Of a stretch of 64,000 nucleotides of DNA, positions 60,683 to 63,507 are shown in pieces; position 1 is the stretch's first letter, and every line of letters starts with the position of its first letter. The position numbers were made by a program, and so were the translations under genes. Below the pieces are notes generated by a model. It was given only the letters and a program-made list of their open reading frames with translations. It did no database searches and had not been told where the DNA came from. The stretch is taken from the IMG/VR virus record IMGVR_UViG_3300005345_000001, positions 1 to 64,000 of that record, one strand, 5' to 3'. The stretch comes from a virus (Duplodnaviria > Caudoviricetes).

Positions 60683-61212
60683 CATCGGATGATAATGGAA
60701 ACGGGCAGGTACCTTTAGCCATCGTTCATCAGCAGGACCATGGACAGGCCATCGCCATCCGGGCCAAGGAACGGGCTGCCGCAGCCATGGTTAAGGCCAA
60801 GACTTTCGAACAGTTCGGGATGAAAGTCATCAGGGTGAAGGCCAAGGCAGAGGCGGCCATTGGCAAATATGCTCAGCAGATGGGCATTAAACAGATGGGC
60901 CACGGCAAGGTGGTGATTGTGGGGGATATCGCTCGGGAAGCTATTGATACGATCACCGACATTATCGAAGAGATGCGGGCCCGGGTGCCGCCGTGTGACC
61001 CGGAGATCATTTTGGAATTACTACAAACGCAGAGGGATTTCTCGCGGCTCCTTTTGGACACAGGCCAGGCGCATCTTCAGGCCGATCGCAATGCCAATGC
61101 AGCCAGCGATGCGGGCAAGATTGCTATTCCGTTTGCGCAGGGGACCCCGCTAATGGTAGCAATAGGCAAGAGCCCAACTGAAATCACGCAAGAAGTAGAG
61201 GATAAAACATGA
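60679..61212 (+). CDS. Hypothetical helical protein
   Basis: ATGA-coupled at both ends. Confidence 0.65.
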   Translation: MTSDDNGNGQVPLAIVHQQDHGQAIAIRAKERAAAAMVKAKTFEQFGMKVIRVKAKAEAAIGKYAQQMGIKQMGHGKVVIVGDIAREAIDTITDIIEEMRARVPPCDPEIILELLQTQRDFSRLLLDTGQAHLQADRNANAASDAGKIAIPFAQGTPLMVAIGKSPTEITQEVEDKT

Positions 61213-61532
61213 AACTATTACTGTTGGCGTTACTGGTGCCGGCCTGTTGTTTTGGTCACCTCTTCCAGATAGCATGGGACCCAAGTCCCAGTCCAGGCAT
61301 CAAACATTACATCGTGTTGATTGCTGTGGATGGAGGATCCTCTGGCGCTTATGGAACTACCCCGTCCACATCGTGGGTGGTGGATTTGGAGACTAATTCC
61401 TACACGGTGACCGTGAAGGCAGTGGGAACTAATGGTCAGGAATCGCTGCCATCCAATGCATGGAGGATTCCAAAACCAGCTGGGACGGTGCAGGGGAGCT
61501 ATGGGGTGTGGACGACGACGAACGCGCCATGA
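61209..61532 (+). CDS. Secreted fibronectin type III-like protein
   Basis: Signal MKLLLLALLVPACCFG; IAWDPSP...HYIV...YTVTVKAV...GQESLPSN. Confidence 0.8.
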   Translation: MKLLLLALLVPACCFGHLFQIAWDPSPSPGIKHYIVLIAVDGGSSGAYGTTPSTSWVVDLETNSYTVTVKAVGTNGQESLPSNAWRIPKPAGTVQGSYGVWTTTNAP

Positions 61533-61592: not shown

Positions 61593-61934
61593 ATGAGAGC
61601 TTTACTATCGGTGGGTTTTGCGCTCGTGGTGGCCAGCGCTGCCGCAGCGCAGTCAGTGTTGGAGATCCGTTGGCTGCCCAATCCGGTCAGTGACAGTAAC
61701 CAACTCTATCGGGTGTACGTTTCCACCAATTCCACCACCGTCTTCGGGCTAGCTGGAGGCACCACCGGCACCGTCTTTAGCATTACCAACGTGCCACCCG
61801 GTGTATATGGGGCATCCATTACTGCCTCCAATATCTGGGGCGAAACAGCCAAGAGCCCGCCGGTCTATACAGCTGGGCCAGCGATGGTTCCCAGTGTGCC
61901 ATCAGGGGTGAGTATCCTCATTAGGATCCAATGA
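61593..61934 (+). CDS. Secreted fibronectin type III-like protein
   Basis: Signal MRALLSVGFALVVASAAAA; IRW.PNP...YRVY...Y...ITASN..GET.KS. Confidence 0.8.
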   Translation: MRALLSVGFALVVASAAAAQSVLEIRWLPNPVSDSNQLYRVYVSTNSTTVFGLAGGTTGTVFSITNVPPGVYGASITASNIWGETAKSPPVYTAGPAMVPSVPSGVSILIRIQ

Positions 61935-62481: not shown

Positions 62482-62805
62482 TCACACACGCTCGATGAGT
62501 ATGTCAGCGCCTTCGTCTCCGGCTGGCACACGGACAACACGGACAGATATCTCAGGGATCCAGCTGACGGAGTCGTCCAACGGCAGTGACAAGGCAATCC
62601 AGGATTGTCGATTGAGCCCCGTCTGCATCCCTTTCTCGCCGGTCAGAAACGTAGAGCGTAACTGTGACTCGAAACTGCGGATGCACTGAGCCATCCACTT
62701 TTGCCTTTCGGGTTTTGTGATGAGCTTTCTGCCCGTCCACTGCTTGCTGTTCTTGAAGGACGGGACGTGACCTAAGCCCCTCACGCTTAGCTTGATAGGC
62801 GGCAT
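62482..62805 (-). CDS. RusA-like protein, frame B (N- and C-terminal RusA motifs)
   Basis: VPSFKNSK...LITKP and LPLDDS.....V.V......GADILIE. Confidence 0.6.
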   Translation of the reverse strand: MPPIKLSVRGLGHVPSFKNSKQWTGRKLITKPERQKWMAQCIRSFESQLRSTFLTGEKGMQTGLNRQSWIALSLPLDDSVSWIPEISVRVVRVPAGDEGADILIERV

Positions 62806-62830
62806 AATCTTTCGCTGTCCAGCGGGCCAT
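62552..62830 (-). CDS. RusA-like protein, frame A (central catalytic-like motif)
   Basis: MARWTAKDYAAYQAKR start; VTVTLYVSDRRERDADGAQSTILDCL. Confidence 0.6.
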   Translation of the reverse strand: MARWTAKDYAAYQAKREGLRSRPVLQEQQAVDGQKAHHKTRKAKVDGSVHPQFRVTVTLYVSDRRERDADGAQSTILDCLVTAVGRLRQLDP

Positions 62831-62856: not shown

Positions 62857-63507
62857 ATGGCAGTTCCAATCGAAAGAGTGCGGGCGCAATGGCGTGCGGC
62901 GAACAGACGCTATCGAAAGCGGCATCCAGAACGTGGCCGTGAGCGCAGAAAACAATACAGCAAGGCGTGGAGACTTCGAAATCCAGAGAAGGCCAAAGCG
63001 GCTGACATGAGATGGCGACTAGCTAATCCAGATAGGGTTAAGGAATCAGCCCGTATTGCTGGTAAAAAGTGGCGCGCTAATAACTTGGAAAGAGCCAAGG
63101 CTATGTGCGCTAGGTGGCAGCGGTCCAATCGGGAATATGTTAACCGTAAAGAGCGCGAACGATGCGCAGCCGACCCGTCGTATCGGTTGGCGAGATGCCT
63201 TCGGTCTAGGATACGGCGGGTGTTGCGTCTGAGAGCTGCAACCAAACGGGATAATACCGCCGCCCTCACTGGTTGCTCGGTCCAATTCCTTATGGGACAC
63301 TTGGAGGCACGATTCCAGCCTGGGATGTCATGGGACAATTACGGCAACGTTTGGGAAGTCGATCATATATTCCCCTGTGCTATGTATGATCTGGCTGTCG
63401 ACTCTCAGCAACGAGCCTGCTTCCACTATACCAATCTTCAACCACTGTTCGTTAGTGATAACCGCAGGAAATACACCAAACTACCAAAGGTACCATTGTG
63501 TCAATAA
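62857..63507 (+). CDS. HNH endonuclease
   Basis: F.PGMSWDNYG..WEVDHIFPC...CFHYTNLQPL...DN.RK; basic helical repeats at the N-terminus. Confidence 0.9.
   Translation: MAVPIERVRAQWRAANRRYRKRHPERGRERRKQYSKAWRLRNPEKAKAADMRWRLANPDRVKESARIAGKKWRANNLERAKAMCARWQRSNREYVNRKERERCAADPSYRLARCLRSRIRRVLRLRAATKRDNTAALTGCSVQFLMGHLEARFQPGMSWDNYGNVWEVDHIFPCAMYDLAVDSQQRACFHYTNLQPLFVSDNRRKYTKLPKVPLCQ

Follow-up and report, generated by a model that had tools for sequence, protein, structure and literature searches.

Interleaved RusA-like elements in two overlapping reading frames of a soil phage: a candidate two-chain, dual-coded resolvase

A pair of overlapping open reading frames in a soil phage genome, here called ORF A and ORF B, probably encodes a RusA-like resolvase made of two chains that are read from the same DNA. 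This reading draws on comparison of related loci and on structure modelling. As judged from aligned homologues, both frames are kept open, selection alternates between them along the gene, and the bases at the junctions between selected segments are constrained by both frames. We infer that both ORFs are translated, that their chains assemble and that the resulting complex is a nuclease. There is a reasonably good prospect that one small enzyme fold is built here from two interdigitating polypeptides, its elements laid out in the order A-B-A-B in almost completely overlapping frames of one 350-nt stretch with out-of-frame linkers between them, and that this arrangement is stably inherited in a large family of uncultivated phages. 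The enzyme family is a known one, and the coding architecture appears to be new. Our search of the literature returned only unrelated papers and none that reports such interleaved coding of RusA or of any other enzyme, and to our knowledge interleaved two-frame coding of one fold is known nowhere else.

The window, that is, the whole stretch of DNA analyzed, comprises 64,000 nucleotides (positions 1 to 64,000 of IMG/VR record IMGVR_UViG_3300005345_000001) and belongs to an 80.5-kb viral genome with direct terminal repeats and a G+C content of about 54%. The ORF pair lies on the minus strand and is flanked on both sides by plus-strand ORFs; the features of the locus are listed in Table 1. An earlier note, made from the letters of the window alone, had described two same-strand ORFs with a 254-nt overlap, and its coordinates, overlap length and quoted peptide strings were all confirmed. 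The overlap extends from 62805 to 62552, with A in phase B+2 (equivalent to -1) and the two start codons 25 nt apart. An alternative start for A is the in-frame TTG at 62869, upstream of its ATG, and A stops 9 codons beyond its beta2-alpha2 block.

Table 1. Features of the A/B locus, given in window positions.
Feature	Position	Strand	Content
ORF B	62805 (ATG) to 62482 (stop)	-	107 aa + stop; beta1, PSFKNSK loop, alpha1, ~25-aa "shadow" linker (residues 50-74), PLDDS, beta3-beta4
ORF A	62830 (ATG) to 62552 (stop)	-	92 aa + stop; N-terminal motif, ~32-aa "shadow" linker (residues 18-49), RusA-like beta2-alpha2
Frame-A N-terminal motif M-A-R-W-T-A-K-D-Y-A-A-Y-Q-A-K-R	62780..62830	-	contains B's ATG (62805); conserved in the frame-A alignment
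Segment 1, selected in frame B	62659..62796	-	B residues 4-49: beta1, G-H-V-P-S-F-K-N-S-K loop, helix alpha1
Segment 2, selected in frame A	62582..62683	-	A residues 50-83: strand beta2, catalytic helix alpha2
Segment 3, selected in frame B	62485..62583	-	B residues 75-107: P-L-D-D-S, beta3, beta4
B-to-A junction, dual constraint	62659..62683	-	B helix end R-S-F-E-S-Q-L and A strand start H-P-Q-F-R-V-T-V on the same bases

In the window copy, no clear Shine-Dalgarno sequence precedes the ATG of either A or B, and a scan for promoters and terminators yielded nothing useful. A plus-strand ORF of 216 aa (62857-63507) diverges from the pair, its ATG lying 26 nt from that of A, so that a promoter of the A/B pair, if there is one, would lie inside this ORF. 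The 216-aa ORF contains HNH-like text (E-V-D-H-I ... N) and has no Pfam match at E<=0.01. Two small plus-strand ORFs, 61209-61532 (107 aa) and 61593-61934 (113 aa), have signal-peptide-like N termini and no Pfam match, and a Pfam search of six neighboring ORFs gave no matches. At related loci (designated by L numbers), the neighbors of the gene pair include DUF3799, which we take to be a YqaJ/PD-(D/E)XK-like family, an N6/N4 DNA methyltransferase and an HNH_3 endonuclease (L080:1-300, L109:1082-1704, L111:1281-1677). These neighbors fit a DNA replication or recombination module.

The arrangement recurs widely. The exact B protein of the window was found in separate samples, on 24 contigs or more. 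Full-length homologues of B number 55 (40-67% identity), and the alternation of frames was found in 38 distinct related loci. Our main comparison is a codon alignment of 26 nonredundant homologues (40-67% identity). At every homologous locus for which the DNA was fetched, the +2 frame is open too, with an ATG upstream of the B start and a stop soon after a conserved block that reads H-P-K-F-R-V-T-V-T-L-x-V-S-D-x-R-R-R-D-x-D-G-A-L-S-T-L-L-D-C-L-V-x-A. The frame-A N-terminal motif appears in relatives as M-x-R-W-T-x-x-x-Y-x-x-Y, the x at position 2 also being given as P. Among 27 loci, each frame is opened by ATG or, more rarely, by GTG or TTG, and in almost all loci B has its own ATG directly before beta1.

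A word-index search with frame A as the query returned nothing, and an exhaustive profile search was needed to reach the frame-A family. This search gave 405 representative proteins at E<=1e-3, of which 311 also passed E<=1e-10, indicating that the family is large. Twelve further loci were reached through frame A, eight of them viral and found by the frame-A profile only and four found through frame-A proteins predicted by gene callers. All 12 carry both ORFs, and the openness of B is therefore not a matter of ascertainment through B. The layout of the window is present in 10 or 11 of these 12; the locus L109 has a variant layout with both ORFs open. On contig ERZ1370068 (locus L107, positions ~1001-1318), frame-A shadow text stands in frame with frame-B text, an arrangement that is probably assembly indel noise and not a separate layout. 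One suggestion of the earlier note, overprinting in progress, has the wrong tense: the layout is old, and it has stayed stable in a family that counts 405 representative clusters.

The frame in which the DNA is conserved changes along the gene. In the 26 homologues, mean pairwise BLOSUM scores by column are higher in B than in A over columns 33-85 (beta1 to the end of alpha1), much higher in A over columns 86-119 (34 codons), and much higher in B over columns 120-154 (from P-L-D-D-S onward). Entropy by codon position, a measure that is free of alignment scoring, was calculated for the same 26 homologues and gave, in B numbering, 0.99/0.66/1.41 in segment 1, 0.60/1.32/0.95 in segment 2 and 1.00/0.77/1.56 in segment 3. 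The most variable codon position is thus the third position of B in segments 1 and 3 (1.41 and 1.56 bits) and the third position of A in segment 2 (1.32 bits). The N-terminal motif of A gave 1.11/0.82/1.36 in frame-A positions (17 loci), a frame-A periodicity which argues that a protein is selected in frame A there. Since this motif is conserved too, the conserved text alternates A-B-A-B and not only B-A-B; the B-A-B distribution of motifs given in the earlier note stood, but the note had missed the frame-A motif upstream of B's ATG. In the A block, D63, R67, D68, G71 and D78 are invariant and D70 is nearly so (at least 90% conserved), and D77 and D78 of B, at the L-D-D position, are invariant in 54 sequences.

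Interruption of one of the frames by stops in homologues, an outcome that the earlier note had set against its own proposal, was not observed. Across segment 1, frame A contains no stop in any of the 26 loci, against 78 stops in the third frame, and across segment 2 frame B contains none in any of the 26, against 35; both ORFs are likewise present in the 12 loci reached through frame A. When the synonymous codons of B were resampled in segment 1, the probability that A stays open was 0.22-0.64 per sequence, and equivalent resampling in segment 2 gave 0.05-0.48 for B; the respective products, 10^-9.5 and 10^-17, overstate independence because the homologues are related, with wobble positions largely randomized at such divergence. 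Dual coding implies two frames that both stay open under purifying selection as relatives diverge, each with a start of its own, and the locus shows this pattern.

E. coli RusA and the Rus proteins of lambdoid phages (PF05866; 1q8r, 2h8c, 2h8e) have their elements in the same order as the A/B locus: beta1, P-S-x-N loop, alpha1, beta2, R-D-x-D helix, DD, beta3 and beta4. The size (~105-120 aa), the phage setting and the acidic residues are also shared. RusA forms a homodimer and cleaves Holliday junctions in a Mg-dependent manner. In RusA, these elements form a single chain, whereas at the A/B locus they are distributed over two overlapping ORFs, and no single ORF at the locus holds all of them. 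The acidic triad of E. coli RusA consists of D70, D72 and D91. By alignment, D70 and D72 correspond to D68 and D70 of A, and D91 corresponds to D77/D78 of B, so that the triad lies on two ORFs, as the earlier note had claimed in placing the first two catalytic Asp residues in frame A and the third in frame B. The A/B locus differs from RusA at the position of Lys76, which is Ser74 of A in the 1q8r register and S/T/E/D in most of 27 homologues, with G in one. The E. coli protein presumably lacks the N-terminal motif of frame A.

The A/B locus also lies below the Pfam threshold. PF05866 (gathering threshold, 22.8 bits) matched neither A, B nor the read-through chimera P0056, neither ORF reaches any Pfam family, and a six-frame search of the whole phage genome with PF05866 found no match. 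Frame A matched the RusA-like profile phrog_34 over residues 48-83 with an E value of 0.0014-0.002, as did 7 of 27 A homologues at E<=0.01 (best, 9.7e-5), and the chimera scored E 0.011 against RusA-like PHROG profiles. The nearest ESM-Atlas clusters of frame A are RusA clusters (score 0.90, 179 shared features), 80% of whose members carry PF05866. Frame A is also in register with 1q8r at R-D-x-D, in a PDB profile match that is weak (E 0.96). Frame B alone had no match in Pfam, in PHROGs or, searched as a profile, among PDB sequences, and it had no meaningful ESM-Atlas neighbor; the chimera gave only noise against PDB sequences. The matches of A to phrog_34 and in the ESM Atlas, together with the 38 loci, take the splitting of RusA motifs over two frames, which the earlier note had proposed, beyond chance.

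More distant relatives connect the locus to conventional genes. The proteins L001-L057 are encoded by single ORFs of ~120-130 aa whose alternative frames are full of stops, so that, unlike in the A/B locus, no second frame is open. They belong to RusA-like phrog_1682 (E down to 8e-21) and match Pfam RusA weakly (12.9-18.4 bits). Their N terminus reads V-P-S-S-K-N-S-K-Q-W-T-G-K, against V-P-S-F-K-N-S-K-Q-W-T-G-R in B, and profile alignment spans their full length once the frame-A block is spliced in: in hhalign, a chimera profile (B1+A2+B3) aligned to them over 89 columns (probability, 96%; E 3e-9), whereas a B-only profile aligned over the first 29 columns only. At the level of sequence profiles, the A/B locus is thus homologous to single-frame RusA-like proteins. 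Segment-wise hhalign of the A block against the marine single-frame family was only weakly positive (P of 0.033; the remaining two frames gave 0.77 and 0.9), and we give it no weight. Three of the single-frame RusA-like proteins, L003, L030 and L032, have a conserved C-terminal extension of ~80 aa (~200 aa in total).

An AF2 model of B alone, built with 54 homologues, had a pLDDT of 76.6, with low values at ~51-80 and a contiguous run below 50 at 60-75. This low region roughly coincides with the conserved block of A. The best PDB matches of the B model were to RusA and were not significant (E 1.2). The read-through chimera P0056, built by reference with three four-letter steps, was modeled as beta-alpha-beta-alpha-beta-beta with a pLDDT of only 66; its top PDB matches were 1q8r, 2h8c and 2h8e (E 6e-4, TM 0.48), and OmpA-like domains scored similarly. 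Prediction of the A+B complex, a check that the earlier note had listed, gave an ipSAE of 0.70 (runs, 0.49, 0.70 and 0.72) versus 0.00 for the best of three controls. Because structures of RusA have been solved, and split folds often pass such predictions through resemblance to the solved single chain, part of this score may reflect the known fold. According to the tool, 58 of 80 solved complexes and 2 of 110 mismatched pairs attain this ipSAE mark. Contact agreement among the runs was at least 70%, and the partner pLDDT was 51-58. In the model, beta2 of A (50-62) pairs with beta4 (99-105) and beta3 (90-91) of B, and the A helix (68-88) lies on alpha1 of B, at B 42. What the complex prediction shows is a fit of the pieces to a RusA-like module; it does not show binding in the cell.

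Two variant loci have a different division of the elements. In L069 (1916-2344), frame A has the N-terminal motif, beta2-alpha2 and also beta3-beta4, and B is short, ending soon after alpha1; the A ORF of this locus matches PHROG 34 at E 2e-8. In L109 (601-1104), frame A has the same three parts, and B continues as an unconserved tail. A single indel that moved beta3-beta4 between the chains would be neutral only if both products act jointly. This point bears on a reading that we consider unlikely, in which compensating indels disrupted an ancestral RusA gene and the two ORFs, both translated, do not rebuild a nuclease but were kept for separate or regulatory roles, for example, with one product as a DNA-binding fragment and the other as its partner or inhibitor. 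Selection on both frames would be expected under such a history, and both the Ser at the position of Lys76 and the failure to reach Pfam RusA agree with a departure from the resolvase role. The acidic active-site residues of both chains, however, are invariant or nearly so throughout the family, and the retained segments complement one another exactly within one fold, in a model that places them together. The variant layout, moreover, shifts beta3-beta4 between chains without loss, and recombination genes such as DUF3799 are among the neighbors at related loci.

The junctions between frames bear on a further reading, in which three programmed frameshifts, from A to B (+1) after the N-terminal motif, from B to A (-1) after alpha1 and again from A to B (+1) after alpha2, would yield a single polypeptide, an ordinary single-chain RusA-like protein. 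We regard it as improbable. The conserved segments do follow one another along the DNA with alternating frames, as shift sites would give, and the version that resembles RusA is the read-through chimera. The B-to-A junction has T-TTC in 19 of the 26 loci, where the P-site tRNA-Phe could slip back by one base, but the other 7 have T-ATC, which does not allow re-pairing. In the 26 loci, there is no conserved slippery heptamer (X-XXY-YYZ) or homopolymer at either frame change, and A-AAA-AAG is found in only two, upstream of the junction. At the T[TA]TC itself, an aromatic residue in A (F/Y) covaries with F/I in B, and the alternation between TTTC and TATC is what a combination of aromatic residue in A and hydrophobic residue in B would give, and does not fit a slip site.

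The functional segments overlap by ~25 nt at the B-to-A junction, and there the wobble positions of A at the codons for F45, Q48 and L49 of B are invariant (26/26), compared with mostly 1.3-1.9 bits in the middle of segment 2. At the A-to-B junction, the conserved Ala83 codon of A shares two bases with the Pro75 codon of B, the two preceding codons being free in both frames; this junction has no stop and no conserved hungry codon, and the codons on either side of it vary. Selected segments that overlap and are constrained by both frames would not be expected of shift sites, an unused frame would have no reason to stay open and yet is open in all loci, and B almost always has its own ATG just ahead of beta1. 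Together with the lack of a conserved shift site, these observations disfavor triple frameshifting, and we know of no precedent for three efficient shifts within one 350-nt gene. The earlier note had offered a single +1 recoding event near CTT GTC ACT, a reading that is not supported. That stretch is variable among homologues and has no conserved slippery site, three shifts and not one would be needed, and the unused frames would again have no reason to stay open. Conserved text does change frame within one gene in dnaX, in prfB and in the phage tail chaperones G/GT. Those genes have a single shift, tied to a slippery or hungry site that is conserved, and their zero frame closes shortly beyond it. 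The A/B locus, in contrast, changes frame three times, has no conserved site and keeps both frames open.

Comparative data have already refuted the reading that the layout comes from sequencing or assembly indels or from a decaying pseudogene, with one frame or neither real: two compensating indels would mimic it in a single sequence, and the related contig L107 looks indel-scrambled, but the same sequence stands on at least 24 independent contigs, the layout recurs at 40-67% identity in 38 distinct loci with coding periodicity in both frames, and the family runs to hundreds of representative clusters, so that we give this reading almost no credence. A single contiguous RusA ORF in close relatives, which the earlier note had named as the sign of sequencing indels, was not found: independent assemblies gave identical B proteins, and a word-index search with the chimera retrieved B-type proteins only, with scores below B's own, and no close single-frame homologue.

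Three narrower ideas were also considered. Transcriptional slippage or editing is unlikely, as the junctions lack homopolymer runs in the window and in most homologues. An internal start of A at the NTG in the K-V-D-G stretch was rejected, as this codon is an automatic by-product of the invariant Trp-Met of B; it also fails on the openness of A across segment 1 and on the selected N-terminal motif. A role of the N-terminal motif of frame A as a mere RNA signal for the start of B is ruled out by its frame-A codon periodicity.

Of the three readings that the earlier note had offered, a dual-coded two-chain enzyme fits best. In this model, one mRNA would be translated in two overlapping frames into two polypeptides that together form a RusA-like structure-specific nuclease. 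Chain B would contribute beta1, the PSxKN loop, alpha1, a linker and the DD motif with beta3-beta4, and chain A would begin with the short N-terminal motif and, beyond a linker, add beta2 and the catalytic helix alpha2 that carries the D-x-D pair. Each linker would be the out-of-frame reading of the partner chain's conserved segment. Strand beta2 of A would insert into the sheet of B, with alpha2 of A packing on alpha1 of B, and the RusA-type alpha/beta module rebuilt in this way would have an acidic site composed of two Asp residues from A and an Asp of the DD motif of B. By analogy with RusA, the module may pair into an (AB)2 assembly that resolves Holliday junctions or branched phage DNA.

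Two proteins are encoded by the same DNA in different frames in lambda Rz/Rz1 and in the overlaps of phiX174, and the Rz and Rz1 products form one complex. In those systems, however, each frame encodes a complete fold and one of the two is usually an overprinted novelty, whereas the frames of the A/B locus encode complementary, interleaved parts of a single ancestral fold. If there are indeed two chains, almost every base of the gene would be selected in one frame or specify a linker in the other, and a compensated frameshift need not kill a gene, given translation of both frames and assembly of the products. The locus would then offer a natural system for fragment complementation, for co-translational assembly from one mRNA and for the limits of dual coding, and a synthetic copy of this small gene in E. 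coli could test the two-chain reading directly. Standard gene callers report just one ORF of the pair and label it hypothetical, and a whole clade of phage junction resolvases would thus be absent from annotations.
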